Shown piece by piece: positions 1 to 35,945 of a stretch of 61,818 nucleotides of DNA. Below the pieces are notes generated by a model. The model made no database searches. It was not told the DNA's origin and saw nothing but the letters and a program-made list of their open reading frames with translations. Position numbers and translations under genes: made by a program. Origin of the DNA: Pseudomonas phage Itty13; the sequence record MW460249.1; one strand, given 5' to 3'. The first letter of the stretch is position 1. The number at the start of each line of letters is the position of its first letter.

Positions 1-3000
1 CGCGCTTGTTCCACCGCTGTTTGGACATGGCGGTGTTGTACTTCTTCAGCGCGGCGGCCTCGGCCTCCTTCCGCGCGTCGCCGGTCAGGCCGTCGTCGCG
101 GATTTCCTGCATGTCCTTTTCGTACTGCCGCTCAGCCTTGCGGCCGGCGATGTCCAGGGCTTGCCCAAGGTTCTCCATCAGAATGGTGTCCAGCTCCTCG
201 GTCATCTGCTTGTAGGCGTCGCGGACCTCGCGGTACTGCGCCTGCAACTCGGGCGACAGCTTGCGGAAGCGCTCGGCCAGAGCCTTATGCGCCTCGCGGC
301 GCTGCTCGTCGGCCGCCTTCTTGGCGAAGGCCTCCATGGCGGCCTCGCTGTTCGGCCGGTACTGCATCACCTGCTCGTCGGCCTTGGTGATCGAGGTTTT
401 GAACGGCTCGGCCGGGTCGGTTTGCGCCAGGGTGGCCTCGTGCATGATGTCGGCCATCTCCTGCGCGCCCTTGCGGTCGAAGGCGATCAGCTTCAGCCAG
501 CGCTGGGCGATGGTGTCGAACTGCTGGTGCTTCTTCGAGCGGTAGGCGTCCATGTCGCGCTTCAGGTTCAGGTACTCCTGGGCCGGCTGGTTCCCGCCGG
601 CCAGCTCCTCGACCATTCGGTCCATGGGCGCCAGGGCCAGGACGCTCCACCGGCCGCCGCTGCGCGGCCCGGCCATGGCGTCGGTCAGCTTCCGGCTAAA
701 CCAGCCTTCCACCTCGGTATCGCTCGGCGCGTTCTCCGGCAGGCTGGCGATGGAGTACCGCTCCCCGTCCATCGAGGAGGCGCCCGGCGCCTGGGCCTCG
801 CTGCGGATCGCGGCCAGCGCCATGGCGCGCAGTTGCGCCGGCGTGACCTGCCCGAGCTGCACGCCGAAGGTGCGGAACAGGAAGTCCTTGATGGCGCCGA
901 TCACGTCGTCCACCCAGCGGCGAACGGCCGCCGGCGCGCTCTCGTACTCCTCGATGGCGTAGGCGCCGAACTCCTCGACCGCCAGCACGTCGCTCATCGG
1001 CAGGTAGCGCTGGGCGGTCTCGACGCGGGCACGGGCGGCGTCGAAGAACTGGCGCGCGCGGCCGTTCGACTTCTCGAACTGCTTGTACAGTTGCTCCAAG
1101 CGGACCATGAGCTGCGCCCAGCGGCGCGTCCCGACCAGCGGCCGGGCGCCGGAGTGGAACATCTCGTGCAGCAGGACGGCCAGGGCATTCTGCGGCGTGA
1201 CGTTGGCGGCGACCATATGGACGCTGCCGTCGTCGTAGGTCTTGGCCTGCATGCCCGGCACGCTCGCGCCCGGCACGGTGCTGGCGTCGGCATGCACGAC
1301 CAGCCGGCCGGCATCCATCAGCTTCTGCAACTGCGCGCCCAGCGGGCCGCTGGTGAGCACATCGCGAATGCGCTCGGGGCTCGCCGGCGCCGACAGGCTC
1401 ATCAGCTCGTAGCGCAGGTCCGGGCGACGGTAGTACCGATCATTCACGGACGGATCGTCCGGCTCCACCATGATCGTGCGAACGTCGTTGAGCATGGTGT
1501 GGTTGTAGTAGGTGATCCGACCGTCCGAGGTCTCGCGCAGCGTGACCATGGTGGTGATCGGCTCGCCATCCACGCGGATGCGGCGACCGAGGTAGTGGTA
1601 GGTGACGCCGTCAGCCTCGCGGCGGCCCAGGTACGGCGCGCCTTCCACGATGCGATCCAGCATCGGAATGGACTTCACCTTCGCCGGGTCGTTGCTGTTC
1701 GCCCGGCTCTTGGTGATGCCGGCCCGGTTGAAGTTGATGGCGCCGAGCTTCTGGTGCTGCATGGAGATGCCGCGCTTTGCCAGCAGGTCGTCGAAGACAC
1801 GGGCGCGAGCGTCCGCCACCGGCATGCTGGCGATTTCCGCCGGCGTGCGCAGGTCGATAGCGTCGGAGCGGATCAGCTCGTACATGCCGTCCGGCTGGAC
1901 GCTGAAGCGCTCGCCGTCCACCACGGCATCCACGCGGGCACCATCGTTCAGCGCGCGCTGGAGCTGGTCGGCGACCGAGGCCTTGACATCCGGCTGCTGC
2001 GGCGGCGTCTCCTTCTTCTTCGGCTTCAACTGGCCGAGCACGTCGTTATGGCGGGTCTTGGCCTGGGCCAGCTCGTCGCGCTTCGCCCAGTCGGCGGCCT
2101 GCTCCTCCAGTTTCGGGATGTCAGCCTGGGCGCGGGCCTTGCGCTGCTCGACCTGCTCGATGGCGCCGCCCAGGTCCTTGACGGTGTTGGTCACGCGCAT
2201 GGACAGGCCGAGCGGATCGGTGTCGAGTTCAAAGGCGGCGGTATAGGTGCCATCGCCCACGACCTGCGCCTCGTAGCGCTCCTTGGTGATGCGCTCCAGG
2301 CGAATTGTGAAGTCGCCGTAGCGGCCGATCTCGGCCTCCTCGGTTCCATTCGCCTCCATCTTGGCGGCCTGGGCCAGGATCGCCTCGCCGGCGTCCTTGC
2401 GCTTGTCGAACTCCTTGCCGTTGATGGTGATGACGAACTCCTTGGGCAGCTCGCGCTTTGCATCGGCGCGCAGCTCGTCCAGCAGGCGGTCAGCGCGCTC
2501 GATGCTGCGCTTCGCCGAGCGGACGCTGTCGCGCAGGCGGAACTGCTCGCGCTCGTGGTTCATCCGCTCGTTTTCGAGCTTCCTGATCTTCTGGCGCAGG
2601 CTCATCTCTTCGAGGATCAGCGGGTTGCCGCTGGCGGCCGCCTTCATCTCGGCGGCGTTCGCGGCCTCGCCGGCAACGTCCTCGATCTCGCGGGTGCCGG
2701 ACGCGCCCTTGCGCACCTGCTCGATGAAGTTGGCCTTGCCCTCGATGGTCTGCCACATGCGGCTGTCCAGGGTCTGCTTCGTGGCGTAGCGGAAGATCGC
2801 CACCTCGAAGCCCTCGGGGTCGCGCTCGTACAGCTTGTTGCCCTGGCGGATGATCCGCCCCTCGCGCTGCTCAAGATCGGACGGGCGCCACGGCGCGTCC
2901 ATGTGGTGCAGGGCGACCAGCCGGTCCTGCACGTTGGTGCCGGCGCCCATCTTCGCGGTGGAGCCGAACAGGAAGCGCACGCGGCCGGAGCGGACCTTGC

Positions 3001-6000
3001 CGAAAAGCTCCTCCTTCTGGAGGTCGGTCTTGGCGTCGTGGATGAAGGCGATCTCGTCGGCCGGGATGCCCTTGGCGATCAGCTTCTGCTTCAGGTCGTC
3101 ATAGACCGAGAAGTCACTGTCCAGGGCCATCAGCTCGTCGGGGCTGACCTTATCCAGCTCGGCGGCCGCGTCCTCGTCTCCCTCGTCGGCCCGGCGTGCG
3201 AGGTCGCGCAGGCGCTCGGCCTCGGCGGAACGAGCGTTCTTCGGCGTGGACAGGTCGATGAAGACCAGTTGCGTGCCGCGATCCTCGTGGAACTTGTCGT
3301 AGAGCGCGCGCATGTTGCCGGCGGCGACGTTGACCTTGCTGCCCTCGTAATCCGGGTAGCTCGGGTCGATCAGGCGCATATCCAGGGCGGCCTTCCGGGC
3401 GTCGCCCATGATCTTCAGCATGTTGTCCGAACCCTTCTCCGCCTTCTTCGGCAGGTTCTCGGAGCGCCAAACCAGCGTGCCGCGCGGGTAATCGTCGGTG
3501 TCGTTGCCGTCCGCGTCCTTGATCGGCTCGCCGATGTAGTTGGCCTGGTCCTGGCTGCGCGGGACGACGACGTTCTCCGGCTTGCCGCCGCGCACCTTCG
3601 GCACCGGCAGCTTCTTGCCCTGGGCGGCGAGCATGCGGTTGATGTCCGCGCGGTTCACCACGTCGGCGAAGGAGCCGTAGCGCTGCATCAGCTCCGGCAT
3701 GTTCACGAATTTCGCGAACCGGCTGTTCATCTTGTACTTGCCGGACGGCGACAGCTCCCAGTCGGTCACGACCTCGCCGAACATGCGCGCCCAGGCGTCG
3801 AAGTGGCTCAGGCCCTGGCCCTTCAGGTTCACATAGTCGAGATACCGCTGCATGGTGTACATCTCGGCCATGGTGTTGCTGATCGGCGTGCCGGTGGCGA
3901 AGACCACGTTGCGGCCGCCGGTGGCCTTCAGCACCTGCCGGACCTTCAGGAACAGGTCGGCCGCCTTCTGGCTGCCGGTCTGCGTGCCCAGGCCTGCGAC
4001 GCGGTTCATGGAGGTGGAGAACGCGAGGTTCTTGAACTCGTGCGCCTCGTCCACGAACAAGGCGTCCACGCCCAGCTCGCCCCAGTACAGGCTGTCGTCC
4101 TTGTTGTCGGCGTCGATCAGCTTCTTCAGCTTCTCCTGCAAGGCGTCGCGGCGCTTCTGCGTCTCCTTGACGTTCCGGCTGTTCTTGCCGTCCACCTGAC
4201 GCATCAGCTCGATGGAGGCGTCGAGGTCATCGACCTGCTCCTGAATGAATGCGGCCTGCTCGTGCGGCTCCACCTCGACCTTGCCGAAACTTGTGTGCGC
4301 GACGATCACCGCGTCCCAGTCGCCGGTGGCGATCCGGGCGAACAGGCGCTTGCGGTTCTCCTTCTCGAAGTCCTTCTTGGTCGCCGCGAGCACGTTGGCG
4401 CCAGGGTAGAGCTTGGTGAAGTCGGCCGCCCACTGGCTGACGAGGTGGTTCGGCACCACGAACATGGGCTTCTTGGCGAGGCCCATGCGGCGCAGCTCCA
4501 TCGCGCCGGCGACCATGGTGAAGGTCTTGCCGGCGCCGACGACGTGGTCCAGCAGGGTCGTGTCAGCCTGCACGATCCGCCACACGGCGTTCCCCTGGTG
4601 CGGGCGCAGGGAGATGATGTCGTCGCCGACCTTGCCGGGGAACGTGAGGTGCGAGCCGTCGTAGTCGCGCGCGACGTTGGTGTTGTAGGTGTCGTTGTAG
4701 ATGCGGCCCAGGCGCTCGCGCCGGGCATCGTCAGCCCACACCCAACGATCCCAGGCCTCCTTGACCGCGTTCACCTTGTCGTTGGCGAGCTGGGTTTCGC
4801 CCTCGTTCAGGGTGCGGCTGCCGTCCGGGTGCGAGTCGTAGACCTGTAGGGTCTTCTGGTTCGCCGCGGCTTCGAGGATGCCGGTCAGGGTGACGCGGCC
4901 GGTGGCGAAGCGCTGGTCGGCTGCGGTGGTGGCATCGACGTTCAGGAACGACCACTTCGCGGTCGCCGGGTTGTAGATGGCGCGGGCGCGGCTGCCCTCG
5001 GCGACGTGGTTGGCGAACTCGGCCATCACTTCCTGCGGCACCCATGGGGCGCCCGGCTTGACGTTGATGTCCACAGCCTCGATGTCGGCCGGCTGCACAC
5101 CTTCCAGGGCTTCGACGTTCGCGGCGAATGCCGGATCGCTCTTGGCCGCCTCGCGGGCCTTGGCCAGCTTCGCCTTCACGTTCCCGCTCAGGTACTCGTC
5201 GCGGGTGACGTAGCCCTTCACCGGGTCCTGATAGACGAGGTCGCCAAGCTCCTTGACGATGGTGTCCGGCGACTTGCCGTACAGCTCGCTCATCAGGTCG
5301 AGGTCTACGCGGCCGGTCTCGGCGAGGCTGGCGACCAGGGCGTCCTTCGCCGACGCGGCGCTGGTCGGCGCCTGATACGGCTGCTGGGTGCGCTTGCTGA
5401 AGATCGCCGCCTTCTGCGCGCTCGGCTTGCGAGCCTCCTCGCCGGTCTTCTTCGCCATGGCGGCGGACAGCCCCTTGTCGAAGTTGTCCTCCAGGGCGGA
5501 GAGCTGCGGCCACGTCGGATCGTCGCGGAACAGGCGCTTGTTGGCGTCGAGGTTGATCGGGCCGTTCGCCTTGACGAAGGCGTCATAGGCCGCGTTCAGC
5601 TCCTTGCGGGCGGCCTCGATCCGCTTGTCGGTGGCGCTCGGGTCCAGTTGCAGGCCGCGCAGGCGGGCCAGCACGTCGCGGATGCCGATCATGCCGACGA
5701 CGCGCTCGCGGGCCTTCTCGTTCGGGAAGGTCACGGCCTCGGCGGTGTTCTCGCCCAGCACGTCCTCGCCGCGCACCTTCACGGTGTCGCCGTCGAGGAA
5801 CATGGAGCCGACGCGCACGTTCTCGGCGCGCACGGTCTCGGCGGTCTCCGGCTTCACCGCCGCCGCCTGGGTCATGACGCCCTCGGGCAGGCGGTCGATG
5901 GCGCGCGCCAGCTCGGCCTGGGTGTCCTGGCCCTCGCGGGCGACCAGGGCGGGCTCGCCGTCGCGGTACATGGAGCCGTAGGCGCCGAAGTCGCCGAGCA

Positions 6001-32746: not shown

Positions 32747-33012
32747 TGAAGCATCTCCCACACTCGCCGGGCGTGCGCCGACTTGAACCAGCGAGCGACC
32801 AGCAAGGTGACGCCGCATCGCTTGCAGCTCCAGCGCATCTCCTCGCCGATGGTCAGTGGCTCGCCGCCGGTGATGAGCTGGACGCGGATTTCGCGCTCCT
32901 CTCGGAGCTGATGGCGATGAAAGCCCAGGCGGCAGGCCAGCAGCCCGCTCCTACGCGAAAAGCGCTGGGCAATCCCCCACGCTGGTGGCCAGATTTCACG
33001 TAGGAACGTCAA
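32743..33012 (-). CDS. Hypothetical small protein with CxxC motif (89 aa, TTG start)
   Basis: High GC3. The TTG start overlaps the GIY-YIG stop (TTGA) and the stop overlaps the TerL GTG, so the three genes are translationally coupled. Confidence 0.35.
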   Translation of the reverse strand: MTFLREIWPPAWGIAQRFSRRSGLLACRLGFHRHQLREEREIRVQLITGGEPLTIGEEMRWSCKRCGVTLLVARWFKSAHARRVWEMLQ

Positions 33013-33521
33013 GACACCACCATGACGGCAGTGTTTCGCCGCTTCAGCTCGGCGATCAGCTCCTCGTCGGTGAACGTCTTCAGCATCTGCTGGCGGACGC
33101 CGTGGCTGCGATCAGGGTGCGCGGTTTCCGATGCGTTCAGCAGGCGCCCCTCGAAGCGCCACATCCAGAACTGCTCGCGGGCGTGCAGGAACAGGGCGTC
33201 GATCCTGCGCTCCACCACCGTGAACAGGAAGGCATCTTCGCCGTGCTCGTCCCATGCCTGCTGGAGCAGGGTGGACGAATGATCTCCACGGCGCAGTTCC
33301 CCTTTGTGCGCAGAGAAGCGCTGCTTCGCATTCCTCGTCTGTCCCACATATGCCTGAGCCGTTGGCTTGCAGATGATCAGGTATACGTCGCCAGTAGGAG
33401 CCGGCTCCTCTCGTTTATTCAGCCTGCCGTAGCCGTACTTCTCTTGCCACTCTCGCTCAATTCTCTCGTGATCATGCCTGTTCTTATGCCGGCGTCGCCA
33501 TCTCGGGGTTAGCTCGATCAT
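33009..33521 (-). CDS. GIY-YIG family endonuclease (homing-endonuclease-like) between terS and terL
   Basis: ATG at 33521 with RBS AGGGGG. GIY-YIG motif (GDVYLIICKPTAQAYVGQTRNAKQRFSAHKGELRRG...). Locally lower GC at the 5' end. Confidence 0.7.
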   Translation of the reverse strand: MIELTPRWRRRHKNRHDHERIEREWQEKYGYGRLNKREEPAPTGDVYLIICKPTAQAYVGQTRNAKQRFSAHKGELRRGDHSSTLLQQAWDEHGEDAFLFTVVERRIDALFLHAREQFWMWRFEGRLLNASETAHPDRSHGVRQQMLKTFTDEELIAELKRRNTAVMVVS

Positions 33522-34267
33522 TGCTCGCCCCCTGGCTTCAGCGTGGCGCCGGAGACCTGTTGCAGCAGCAGTGCAATCGGGTTCTCGGCGTCGCCCTTCA
33601 GGGTCAGCTTGTCGTTGAACATGCCCAGGTGGCGCGCGACGTTCTCCAGGGCCTTGCCCTGATCCTGCATTTTCACCTCCAGGCCTTCCTTCGTGACCTT
33701 CACGCCGGCGTAGAGCGCTCGGGCTGACGGGCCGAGGTGGCGGGTGTCGGCCACGAACACATCGCCATGGCCCTCGCCGAAGCACTTCGGGCACCTGGGA
33801 TGCGGCGGCAGGGTCGGGTCGAAGCCGTATCCGCCCTCGTCGCTGGGCGGCTCGCGGTCATCCTTCGCGGCGTTGTCGCAAGCGCGCTCGTACTCGGCCT
33901 CGTCCTTCCAGTGGTAGGCGTGGTCCCGGCCATAGCAATGCCGGCAGCAGACGCGGCGGTGCTGGATCAGCTCGTTCGGGTCGGCGGTGGCGATCTCCCA
34001 CCAGCGCTGGAGCACCATCTCTTGCGTGATCTGCGTCCGTGCAGACAGGTCCTTGCGCGCTTCGGCGATGGCCTGGGCGATTTCAGGTTTTTTCAACAGC
34101 TCGTCGCCGATCTGACCGGCGGTCTTGGCGCTGTATTTCGCGCGGATGGCCGCCTGAGTGGCGTTCAGGTCAACGAGGTACTCCTCGACGAAACGCTGTT
34201 GCTTCGGCGTGAGTGGGCGTGTGGATTTCGTGGATGCCGCTGCATCTTGCGCGCGCTTCGTGGGCAT
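33518..34267 (-). CDS. terS: Terminase small subunit with Cys-rich insertion
   Basis: N-terminal region (LTPKQQRFVEEYLVDLNATQAAIRAKYSAKTAGQIGDELLKKPEIAQAI) matches the terminase small-subunit (Terminase_2) pattern. Head of the late minus-strand operon, with an operator motif ~60 nt upstream. Confidence 0.7.
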   Translation of the reverse strand: MPTKRAQDAAASTKSTRPLTPKQQRFVEEYLVDLNATQAAIRAKYSAKTAGQIGDELLKKPEIAQAIAEARKDLSARTQITQEMVLQRWWEIATADPNELIQHRRVCCRHCYGRDHAYHWKDEAEYERACDNAAKDDREPPSDEGGYGFDPTLPPHPRCPKCFGEGHGDVFVADTRHLGPSARALYAGVKVTKEGLEVKMQDQGKALENVARHLGMFNDKLTLKGDAENPIALLLQQVSGATLKPGGEQ

Positions 34268-34356: not shown

Positions 34357-34656
34357 GTGCAAACGGCTATCGAGTTCACCGTGGTGGAGATGGGGAACGG
34401 GGTTTTCCGGTTCCAAGACACCGAGCGGATCACAGGGGAGCCCCAGGTTCCCCCCGACGCGGTCGAGGTTGACCTGGGATATGTGGGCTGGCGTGGCGCT
34501 CTTGAAGATGCCTGTCGCTTGGCCGGAGTGGAACTGTACGATGTGTCGCTGTGGAAAGCCTACGTGTGGTCGAGAGCTGGCGCGGTCGCGCATGTGATAG
34601 CGTTGCGCTCTGACTGCACGCCCCCGCCGGGGGATCGCCTGTCTGATACGAAGTGA
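34357..34656 (+). CDS. Hypothetical protein (99 aa, GTG start)
   Basis: RBS GGAGCGG. An operator motif abuts the RBS. Moderate GC3. Sits at the edge of the ORF-free structured region. Confidence 0.4.
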   Translation: MQTAIEFTVVEMGNGVFRFQDTERITGEPQVPPDAVEVDLGYVGWRGALEDACRLAGVELYDVSLWKAYVWSRAGAVAHVIALRSDCTPPPGDRLSDTK

Positions 34657-34859
34657 TCGCCCATTGTGAGCTGGATCACTGATAAGTCAGGCGCCGGCCC
34701 TCGACCTCTGGCCATGATTGCCGGCGTCAACCTCTAGAATTTCAAGGGCGGCTTACCCGCCAGCATGCCCTTGCGCCGATGGCGGGCAATTCCACGTCGT
34801 TACTCCTTGGCGCTTCCTTCGCCTCAGAGCCGGCCCCCGGAGTGAGTTGACGGGGATTA

Positions 34860-34960
34860 GGCGCCCCACCGTGGGATCGAACCACGGTCTCCACGGCTCG
34901 CGGCATTCAATTGCGCAGCACTTACGCAACATCCTGACACTACCCTTCGCTCCGCATCCT
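34860..34960 (-). ncRNA. tRNA-like element 1 (T-arm CGTGG-TTCGATC-CCACG plus acceptor-like 3' strand); not a canonical tRNA
   Basis: The minus strand reads ...GACCGTGGTTCGATCCCACGGTGGGGCGCC.... I could not find a matching 5' acceptor strand or anticodon arm. Coordinates are approximate. Confidence 0.25.
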
Positions 34961-35157
34961 TCCGCCGCTGTGCAAGTTCGGCGGCGATCCTCGGCGCTCC
35001 GGCTCGTGGTGTCCTGACCAACTGGACGAGTGGGGTACATCTGCATGGGAGTGGTGACGGCAGGGGCCAGTCGCCGGCGTCGTTGAACCCTCCACCCTTG
35101 CGGGCTTCATTGGAGTCTTGCCTGCCCCGCGTCGGTGCCCGCCTGCATGCAGCACCG

Positions 35158-35215
35158 TCACCACTCCGATGCAGCCTGGGCGGGTGACATGGCTGGGGTC
35201 GCCCAGGTGATCGGG
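35158..35215 (+). repeat. Structured repeat copy A (CCGATGCAGCC - hairpin CCTGGGCG/CGCCCAGG - TGATCGGG)
   Basis: Outer stem TCCGAT/ATCGGG encloses an inner 8-bp hairpin. One of three copies; see findings. Confidence 0.5.
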
Positions 35216-35335
35216 ATGCTGGTTCGTTGGCGGCTACGTGCTCCTTCGGCCTGCGCCCTCTGAAAGGTTCTGCGGCAGGCGACCCATTACCAAGCTCAGT
35301 TTCGACGAACCTGCATCGGGGAAGGCAATGAGGCC

Positions 35336-35445
35336 GGGGTCGAACCGGCGACCTGCATGGGAATGAGCGTTCGCGTTCATGACCGCTTGCGCTCGCTGCT
35401 CTACCGCGCTGAGCTACCCATTGCCTTCTCCGATGCAGCCTGCGC
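35336..35445 (-). ncRNA. tRNA-like element 2: cloverleaf-like with 10-bp terminal stem, D-arm, T-arm and a ~47-nt insert in place of the anticodon arm
   Basis: Minus strand: GAAGGCAATG-GG-TA-GCTC-AGCGCGGTA-GAGC-A-[47 nt]-GCCGG-TTCGACC-CCGGC-CT-CATTGCCTTC. The terminal stem is GAAGGCAATG / CATTGCCTTC. D- and T-arms are canonical; the central region is too long for a standard tRNA. Confidence 0.3.
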
Positions 35446-35492
35446 TACAGATTTGCAGGGACATCGGGCCGTCTCTCCGGCTGTCACGCCTA
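35423..35492 (+). repeat. Structured repeat copy B (CCGATGCAGCC - hairpin CCTGC/GCAGG - GACATCGGG CCGTCTCTCCGGCTGTC)
   Basis: Same conserved flanks as copies A and C, with a different but still self-complementary inner stem. Shares the 3' tail with copy C. Confidence 0.5.
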
Positions 35493-35727
35493 GGTTTCAG
35501 GTCTGCTTGTTGGACCGGCGTTCCGCAACACTCTCCCCGTGACCCTTGGGGGCGGCCCTATCCAGCATTGGGGACCGCAGAAAGCACCTCATGGGTGGCT
35601 GGCTTTCAGACTTCCGGCTTTCGCCATGTTCTGCATTGGAAAGAGGGAACCTGACAGCTATGGCGCACTGCGTCCGGCCGTTCGCATTGCTCGTGCGCCC
35701 TGCTCAGCTTTTTGCACGGGCCGCCCT

Positions 35728-35798
35728 CTTTCCGATGCAGCCTCCCGTTCTCCGCCAGGAGCCGTGGGAGGTGATCGGGCCGTCTCTCCGGCTGTCCG
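35728..35798 (+). repeat. Structured repeat copy C (CCGATGCAGCC - hairpin CCTCCC/GGGAGG - TGATCGGG CCGTCTCTCCGGCTGTC)
   Basis: Same conserved flanks as copies A and B; the inner stem covaries. Confidence 0.5.
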
Positions 35799-35869
35799 CC
35801 CGTCTTTCCAGGCTGTACTGGTCCAGCAGGTGAGCTGGTGGAGCGAAGTATCTGCCAGCCCGATACAGA

Positions 35870-35945
35870 TTTGCAAATTTAAATACTACCGTTCGTCGGG
35901 TTTCTACTTCTTATGATTGCGTTAGTTCTAACGCTAACCTAAGAT
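35870..35945 (+). promoter_or_regulatory. AT-rich early promoter/operator region with palindromes (ATTTGCAAAT, GCGTTAG-TTC-TAACGC)
   Basis: Local GC drop. Inverted repeats lie just upstream of the first early plus-strand gene. Confidence 0.35.

Follow-up and report, generated by a model that had tools for sequence, protein, structure and literature searches.

The locus and its repeated element

We analysed a 61,818-nt stretch of DNA from Pseudomonas phage Itty13 (MW460249.1), referred to as a whole as the window, with attention to the region at 34660–35940, in which a preliminary description had reported three copies of a nested-hairpin element. The window represents a new temperate Bcep22/PEp14/PBC5-type genome, with the genes for terS (34267 to 33518), a GIY-YIG endonuclease, terL, and the portal protein on the minus strand. 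The region contains no credible open reading frame (ORF), as had been noted, and the ORFs found therein were without family matches. It had been placed between terS and the first early gene; however, a 99-amino-acid ORF without a family match lies between the array and terS (34357–34656, plus strand), convergent with the former and divergent from the latter. This ORF is probably a real gene because all three substitutions relative to the close relative L017 fall at third codon positions. The presence of a plus-strand gene at this place indicates that the array is likely a minus-strand unit of its own, starting in the 35800–35940 gap.

An exact-match count located the 12-mer GGCTGYATCGGA three times in the 61.8-kb window (35165, 35429, and 35731), each time on the minus strand. 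This 12-mer is the minus-strand reading of the 5′ box reported earlier, TCCGATGCAGCC. A covariance model of the leader (the repeated element itself) was trained on 24 sequences from other phages, with neither the window nor L017 among them, and searched with the filters off. The model matched the minus strand of the window at 35163–35217 (E = 3.3e-9), 35729–35781 (E = 1.4e-7), and 35427–35469 (E = 2e-6), and the next best match had an E value of 0.74, so that there are exactly three significant sites. These results indicate that the three repeat copies are real and lie where they had been reported. The inner hairpins CCTGGGCG/CGCCCAGG, CCTGC/GCAGG, and CCTCCC/GGGAGG were found as described, and CCGTCTCTCCGGCTGTC, common to two copies (35470–35486 and 35780–35796), corresponds to a further small hairpin, GCCGGAGAGACGGC. 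The 3′ box reads GTGATCGGG in two copies as described, whereas the third copy reads ACATCGGG, and only ATCGGG is common to the three.

The element had been regarded as a self-contained nested hairpin; it is instead the front portion, or leader, of a framed cassette that is larger and lies on the opposite (minus) strand. Each cassette consists, in this order, of a small hairpin (hp0, usually present), a CCGAU box, a second hairpin (hp1), and a long basal helix that directly abuts hp1 and encloses a variable insert, termed the cargo. The helix and its cargo are termed a framed unit. The cassettes of the window, with their leaders, are 150–180 nt long and stand three in tandem. The parts of the array are as follows.

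35797–35943, minus strand: gap between the divergent units and presumed transcript start (read from the sequence)
35741–35792, minus strand: cassette 1 leader, with hp0 GCCGGAGAGACGGC (35779–35792), CCGAU box (35774–35778), and hp1 CCUCCC...GGGAGG (35741–35771) (model match and fold)
35631–35740, minus strand: cassette 1 framed unit (unit 1), with basal helix CUGCAUCGGAAAGAGGG / CCCUCUUUCCAAUGCAG, a C.A mismatch at position 7, and a cargo of ~70 nt
35482–35630, minus strand: spacer 1, which separates cassettes 1 and 2, has a predicted structure, and is 99% identical in L017
35439–35481, minus strand: cassette 2 leader, with hp0 (35468–35481), CCCGAU box (35463–35468), and hp1 CCUGC...GCAGG (35439–35459) (model match)
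35311–35438, minus strand: cassette 2 framed unit (unit 2), with a 22-bp helix that has an A.C mismatch at position 10 and runs into a tRNA-like acceptor stem
35216–35310, minus strand: spacer 2 between units 2 and 3, a conserved non-coding module that is absent from L017 along with cassette 3
35175–35215, minus strand: cassette 3 leader, with CCCGAU box (35210–35215) and hp1 CCUGGGCG...CGCCCAGG (35175–35207) (model match and fold)
35041–35174, minus strand: cassette 3 framed unit (unit 3), with helix CUGCAUCGGAGUGGUGACGG / CCGUCACCACUCCCAUGCAG, a C.C mismatch at position 7, and a cargo of ~90 nt
34860–35036, minus strand: element 4, tRNA-like and unframed, beginning 4 nt past cassette 3 (ARAGORN with introns allowed)
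34700–34859, minus strand: array tail, with a hairpin GGCGG-GUAAG-CCGCC followed by CUUGAAAUUCU (34746–34761), a weak candidate terminator (read from the sequence)

Promoter and terminator scans called nothing inside the array. The gap between the divergent units holds a 16-bp perfect inverted repeat, GCGTTAGTTCTAACGC (35919–35934), which looks like a repressor operator. An orphan half-frame, CTGTATCGGG, lies at the array head on the minus strand (35868 to 35859), and a 12-nt repeat, TACAGATTTGCA, is common to the array-head stretch 35859–35875 and the small-hairpin loop of unit 2 (35446–35457). Spacer 2 is 84% identical to positions 1572–1658 of Caudoviricetes sp. MW202713, adjoining a gene annotated as an antitermination protein.

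Frame architecture and base pairing

Folding of the minus strand gave the same arrangement in all three copies. GGCUGCAUCGGA opens a helix of 20–22 bp, the 3′ strand of which, CYCCNAUGCAG, lies 110–134 nt downstream, and the helices of units 1, 2, and 3 each hold a different cargo. Positions 1–11 of the basal helix are conserved in sequence (CUGCAUCGGAG / CYCCNAUGCAG), and the conserved half-helix pair is CUGCAUCGGAG/CCCCGAUGCAG; positions 12–22 are maintained by covariation only. Mismatches are conserved at position 7 (C.C or C.A) and position 10 (A.C). The helix was 20–22 bp long in 80 of the 99 unique units, and its length was uncorrelated with that of the cargo (r = −0.04).

We examined the pairing of the basal helix in 30 distinct frames. 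Paired cells made up 93% of the total, a value that is partly built in because the units were selected for pairing, and double-sided changes were observed in 12 of the 20 pairs. The covariation score of the helix was not reached in any of 500 shuffles, and sliding the partner strand lowered the paired fraction to ~30%; these two controls are unaffected by the selection of the units. Compensatory changes were also present within the cargo interiors, in clusters of 4–7 sequences each. The earlier suggestion of selection for RNA structure is thus well supported, since the small hairpin, the long helix, and the cargos all covary.

In regards to the strand and the type of nucleic acid, helix positions 11–25 contained ~26 G.U wobbles against 4 A.C mismatches when read in the minus sense. 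This large excess of G.U over A.C on one strand indicates that the pairing takes place in RNA transcribed in the minus direction. Moreover, the D-arm and T-arm sequences described below read as transfer RNA (tRNA) on the minus strand only, and the unit was co-oriented with the flanking genes in all eight annotated phages (8/8).

hp1 always closes with CCU...AGG around at least 10 different interiors, and hp0 belongs to at least three unrelated sequence classes. The 17-mer of the preliminary description is hp0 of class A, GCCGGARAGACGGC, the general form of which is GCCG-GARAGA-CGGC.

The leader folded alone adopts the nested hairpin reported earlier, with an ensemble frequency of 0.47–0.90. 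The full units fold into the long helix, which displaces the outer stem, and the two folds are mutually exclusive. The CCGAU(G) box copies the 3′ strand of the helix and can therefore pair with the same CAUCGG. Accordingly, the proposed CCGAT/ATCGG outer stem does form in the isolated leader, whereas in the full unit it competes with a longer, covarying helix. Covariation, which lends the outer stem no support, does not refute it either, because its sequence is invariant.

Cargo diversity, tRNA-like RNAs, and distribution

A frame-based search collected 120 units with an abutting hp1. These units contained 93 unique cargos of 26–179 nt, which fell into at least 58 unrelated clusters. A structure-based scanner made 117 unit calls in 1.48 Mb of fetched loci (given L numbers below) and none in shuffled copies. 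A shared-motif search across the cargos returned only sub-scaffold and T-loop motifs, each in 6–8 of 53 clusters, and no motif common to all.

Many cargos (L132, L066, L082, L160, L188, and others) are themselves built on a second-level scaffold, AAUGCGCAGGCUGAUGCGC ... GCCGGAGAUCAGCRCCGGC, which surrounds another variable insert. The complementarity of its two hairpin loops, GGCUGAU and AGAUCAGC, points to a possible kissing-loop contact. Directly downstream of the units in L029, L066, L113, L123, and L132, and also in L048, L057, and L127, two separate modules recur: one is UUUUCAUCGAUUUAAAGCGCAUCACCG, the CAUCG of which can pair with the CGAUG of the frame 3′ strand, and the other is the hairpin AGAAGCGCCC-AGCUCC-GGGCGCGG.

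The cargo of unit 2 is a tRNA-like cloverleaf (core 35324–35423), which was called by ARAGORN with introns allowed. Its D arm (UA-GCUC-AGCGCGGUA-GAGC) and T arm (GCCGG-UUCGACC-CCGGC) are both canonical, and its 7-bp acceptor stem continues into the frame, which lengthens it by ~15 bp. The anticodon arm is elongated: a stem of 5 bp is followed by an internal loop, 3 further bp, and a terminal loop of 8 nt, GUCAUGAA. CCA is not encoded. The RNAalifold consensus of the unit 2 alignment was a cloverleaf with 8 compensated pairs, in which the acceptor and T stems covary. A core with 87% identity to it is present in the Pseudomonas phages Shamal and Haboob, and 20 IMG/VR contigs contain it as well. 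In these relatives, the helix flanking the cargo is wholly different in sequence and fully compensated.

Element 4 has a D arm UC-GUCC-AGUUGGUCA-GGAC, a T arm CGUGG-UUCGAUC-CCACG, and an acceptor stem ACCCCAC/GUGGGGC, with an insert of ~100 nt where the anticodon arm would be. No relatives of it were found beyond L017. The D and T arms of both RNAs carry the universal tertiary-contact nucleotides of tRNA (U8, A14, G18 G19, and A21; G53 T54 Psi55 C56 R57 A58). Default ARAGORN reported no tRNA genes, both RNAs being called only with introns allowed, and the Rfam tRNA model matched neither even at E ≤ 10. A canonical tRNA gene was rejected on the grounds that standard finders fail, the anticodon arm is not a 5-bp stem with a 7-nt loop, no CCA is encoded, and the acceptor is extended. 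The transfer-messenger RNA (tmRNA) calls made by ARAGORN at relaxed thresholds were not credible.

The variable region of the tRNA-like cargo (35350–35362, minus strand; also in L002, which is phage Haboob, and its relatives) contains an internal copy of the frame 3′ motif, CCNAUGCAG. This copy allows an alternative pairing of ~18 bp with the frame 5′ strand, which would exclude the T arm.

The frame was found in ~45 named Pseudomonas phages, including phi1, phi2, MD8, zjk6, PAE2, JBD88b, Medea1, phiPSA1, and PAJU2. Among the genome hits resolved to species level, 35 of 39 were Pseudomonas, and prophages of ~35 Pseudomonas species carried the frame, with one copy per genome hit. Most carriers are lambdoid siphophages. 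The records under the matches listed have either no feature or an overlapping coding sequence, mostly for a hypothetical protein, and never an RNA feature. The frame was not found in DC1, PEp14, or the fetched stretches of D3, and it is therefore not a general feature of the Bcep22 group or of D3. No conserved protein was encoded within 2.5 kb of the units, the best candidate occurring at 37 of 107 loci.

Comparison of related loci revealed that cassettes and cargos are exchanged as whole modules. The flanks of the array are 96–99% identical between the window and L017, yet only the window has a 260-nt insertion made up of spacer 2 and cassette 3, placed exactly behind ...GATGCAG, and only L017 has a certain stretch of 185 nt that lies between units 1 and 2. 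The arrays themselves differ by ~1%, against 6.7% for terS. L029, L066, L113, L123, and L132 share the leader, the frame, and the downstream flank and contain five different cargos. Conversely, a single cargo, the tRNA-like one, is found ahead of four different genes among lambdoid prophages and again in the podophage of the window. These observations show the modularity, covariation, architecture, strand, and wide Pseudomonas-phage distribution of the frame.

In the lambdoid carriers, the units lie in the early-left operon. In PAJU2, the cI stop codon is followed by an intrinsic terminator, a strong promoter (TTGACA-17-TAGATT), and the unit, which lies ~195 nt past this P_L-type promoter and 34 nt before the first ORF. 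The occurrence of the same frame in early-left operons of lambdoid phages argues against the pac-associated or origin structure that had been among the earlier proposals. In L042 (reverse strand, ~600–4000), several framed units are interleaved with four genuine tRNA genes (Thr, Asn, Met, and Gly), a set as in phage D3; these units have the variant helix bases CUGGAUCGGAG..CUCCGAUACAG and CCGCAUCGGAG..ACCGAUGCGG.

Two further neighbourhoods are recorded here. In L002 (979–2717), a reverse transcriptase gene lies beside a gene for a four-helix-bundle protein, an arrangement like that of a diversity-generating retroelement, ~1.3 kb from a framed unit. In the window, the ORF with the GIY-YIG homing-endonuclease domain (33009–33794, minus strand) lies between terS and terL and looks like a mobile insertion in the packaging module, and a sigma-70-like site, TTTGCA-18-TACAAT, lies upstream of terS (minus strand, 34363 to 34334).

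Interpretation and comparison with known systems

We give an about even chance to the reading that genes for small structured non-coding RNAs, built on a frame that is shared and exchangeable, stand in tandem on the minus strand from 35800 to 34860. Their products would be processed or stabilised, with the helix geometry pointing to excision of the RNase III type. The array would be transcribed as one precursor. The two-turn helix would act as a processing and stability module for a ruler-type enzyme of double-stranded RNA, for which host RNase III, with cuts close to the central mismatches, is the most likely candidate. The cargos would then be released carrying a stem of ~10 bp, in the manner in which ribosomal RNAs (rRNAs) are excised from the operon transcript, and the flanking RNA would retain the conserved half-helix. 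CAUCGG would be free to pair with the box once cleavage has taken place, or as long as transcription has not yet reached the 3′ strand, and this pairing would give the nested hairpin, thereby capping the upstream RNA at its 3′ end. The tRNA mimics could then be matured further by RNase P and by 3′ trimming.

RNase III-type excision is proposed because the helix is 20–22 bp long whatever the length of the cargo and has mismatches at its centre. A two-turn helix is typical of RNase III substrates, such as the rRNA processing stems, the T7 early sites, and the lambda N leader, and cleavage by this enzyme leaves 2-nt 3′ overhangs. The basal helix has the geometry of such a site, that is, ~20 bp or more, largely uninterrupted, with central mismatches. 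Among the functions proposed in the preliminary description, processed small RNAs fit these data best.

Several points weigh against this reading. The RNase III step is drawn from two properties of the helix, its length and its central mismatches, and the array itself is known from its sequence and predicted folds. RNase III normally needs no conserved sequence of 11 nt. This conservation, together with hp0 and hp1, exceeds what RNase III would need and may indicate a different, sequence-specific partner. The promoter scan did not find a sigma-70 consensus upstream of the array on the minus strand, and the terminator scan found no canonical terminator downstream of it and did not call the tail hairpin. 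The selection of units for pairing and the small clusters behind the cargo covariation, both mentioned above, belong here as well.

The lack of a partner gene near the units and the restriction of the family to a single genus make a Pseudomonas host factor that reads the frame sequence plausible. Since one and the same cargo can be found in genomic contexts that have nothing in common, the cargos probably act in trans. Those that mimic tRNA may serve as decoys for, or ligands of, host factors that bind tRNA. As a wider and more tentative proposal, which we would sooner doubt than accept, the frame may be an RNA gene-cassette platform. A genus-specific host factor would read the frame, and phages would acquire, swap, and express at least 58 RNA types. 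The tRNA mimics would act in trans on the machinery of the host or of rival phages, for instance as decoys against tRNA-targeting or RNA-sensing defence.

The helix could instead be a static clamp that is not cleaved, giving a nuclease-resistant, correctly folded cargo module, with the leader hairpin guarding the 5′ strand during co-transcriptional folding. This would suit the preference of the isolated leader for the nested fold and of the full unit for the long helix, and also the location of units within operons, where they directly follow stop codons and lie a short way ahead of start codons. Such a clamp is unlikely, since it leaves unexplained the narrow 20–22 bp length, the conserved central mismatches, and the sequence conservation of positions 1–11.

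The frame could also be a cis-acting put/nut-like antiterminator or anti-pausing element that modifies RNA polymerase, in which case the cargo would be incidental. Antitermination had been among the functions proposed earlier. A lambda nut site combines a boxA sequence with a boxB hairpin, and an N-type protein is encoded nearby. The purine-rich loop of hp0 class A loosely resembles this boxB hairpin, genus-level conservation would suit binding to a conserved polymerase, and the PAJU2 unit lies in the leader behind a P_L-type promoter. Moreover, the two stem-loops of put (PMC9378689) have a parallel in the pair of abutting helices of the frame. We nevertheless consider this explanation improbable: three units stand in tandem in one array, units occupy varied intergenic positions kilobases from promoters, and no similarity to any Rfam family was detected. 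In addition, the cargos reach 179 nt, have covariation of their own, and include tRNA mimics, and the same cargo is kept across different operons.

Mobile or recombining units at the DNA level, either folded single-strand sites like the attC sites of integrons or elements of the miniature inverted-repeat transposable element (MITE) or REPIN type, would account for the gain and loss of whole cassettes exactly at the ...GATGCAG boundary and for the swapping of cargos within identical flanks. In attC sites, the helix base alone is conserved in sequence and bears fixed mismatches, as in the frame. This explanation is very unlikely in view of the G.U excess over A.C on one strand, the tRNA-type D and T arms, and the uniform operon orientation. 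Furthermore, no recombinase or transposase is consistently nearby, each genome hit has one copy rather than the many of MITE or REPIN elements, and the one type of cassette-free junction that was tried, TTAACTGCCCGATGCAG, gave no matches. Homologous recombination between conserved frames explains the modularity equally well.

Titration of the phage CsrA-like protein or host RsmA by the repeats, in the manner of an RsmY/RsmZ-like sponge with multiple GGA or A(N)GGA motifs exposed in hairpin loops, is hardly credible: the conserved box does contain the loosely GGA-like CAUCGGAG, and Bcep22-type phages encode a CsrA-like protein, but GGA occurs 23 times, which is no enrichment over shuffles (20.7 ± 3.6), A(N)GGA is rarer than in shuffles (2 against 4.5), CANGGANG has no match, the GGAs lie in predicted stems with none fully unpaired in units 1–3, and most carriers are lambdoid phages without a CsrA-like gene in their annotated neighbourhoods. 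A self-targeting antisense or immunity RNA was also rejected; the longest complementarity to the own genome was 13 nt, against 12–16 nt in shuffles.

If the RNA gene array is expressed, it would represent a large hidden layer of phage-encoded structured RNAs, with dozens of cargos in common Pseudomonas phages. The carriers include relatives of therapeutic P. aeruginosa phages and clinical prophages as well as P. syringae phages. In that case, the frame would also serve as a defined signature, in both sequence and structure, by which many phage RNAs could be discovered together. It would offer a natural counterpart to the engineered tRNA scaffold for expressing RNA, and a testable route to RNA-based host manipulation or counter-defence. 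It would also account for the "empty" gaps of 0.2–1.2 kb to which annotators assign either no feature or a spurious ORF. With its elongated CAU-loop arm, which is fully conserved, the tRNA mimic is a specific candidate ligand or decoy for a tRNA-binding factor.

We compared the array with known RNA families and systems. Rfam 15 gave no matches for the window at the gathering thresholds; for the region at E ≤ 10, only two chance-level matches were returned, so that the Rfam check advised earlier assigns it to no family, and nine related loci gave only genuine tRNAs. The empty results of Rfam and default ARAGORN rule out known families, tmRNA, and known self-cleaving ribozymes. No description of the frame was found in the literature searched, which covered titles outside subscription-only access and included a text search for the frame sequence, the MD8 genome paper, and a 2025 review of phage small RNAs.

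The RNase III stems of 16S and 23S rRNA, the T7 early sites, and the lambda N-leader site resemble the frame in having a helix of about two turns around a stable RNA, a polycistronic transcript with tRNAs, and central internal loops or mismatches. The PAJU2 unit occupies the same position as the lambda N-leader hairpin. Unlike these stems, the frame is phage-borne and confined to one genus, with a helix base that is conserved in sequence over dozens of cargos and with two extra hairpins and a box. Phage-encoded small RNAs such as the T4 stable RNAs and DicF share transcripts with tRNAs or mRNAs, from which host RNases free them, as is proposed for the cargos. To our knowledge, RNAs of the T4 stable RNA and DicF type are single and fixed, with no shared exchangeable frame or cargo diversity.

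Like the tRNA-scaffolded RNAs (the engineered Ponchon-Dardel scaffold, the tRNA-miRNA chimeras of gammaherpesvirus 68, and the RNase P-processed P1/P7 C4 and P4 CI RNAs), unit 2, element 4, and several cargos of other phages keep the acceptor, D, and T arms and swap the anticodon arm. Unlike them, most framed cargos are not tRNA-like, and the acceptor is extended by ~15 bp rather than free. Assignment to the C4 and CI immunity RNAs, the loops of which are complementary to targets in the same phage, was rejected, as there was no Rfam C4 match and the complementarity to the own genome was at the chance level. The bacterial Y RNA YrlA is alike in combining a long stem formed from both ends with a tRNA-like domain. 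In YrlA, the stem continues from the position of the anticodon stem and the acceptor end is closed; the frame is the reverse, its stem being continuous with the acceptor stem. YrlA itself was rejected in the absence of an Rfam match at E ≤ 10 and of any noted Ro/Rsr gene nearby.

The put element of HK022 is ~70 nt long, has two stem-loops, and occurs once downstream of P_L and once downstream of P_R (PMC9378689). It is alike as an RNA element of two stem-loops after early promoters, and it acts independently of a protein. Unlike put, the framed units are 150–180 nt long with variable cargo, stand three in tandem, and occupy varied positions. Terminator read-through at put depends on the zinc-binding domain of the beta-prime subunit of RNA polymerase. 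The HK022 record has no put annotation, and the frame is distinguished from put by description rather than by sequence comparison. Integron cassettes and attC sites share a conserved helix base with fixed mismatches, a variable interior, cassette arrays, and gain and loss at a boundary. They consist of folded single-stranded DNA with an integrase and carry ORF cargo between the sites, whereas in the frame the cargo lies inside the hairpin, the evidence is for RNA, and no integrase is associated. Each of these close analogies shares one feature with the array, and none shares the conserved frame with exchangeable cargo.

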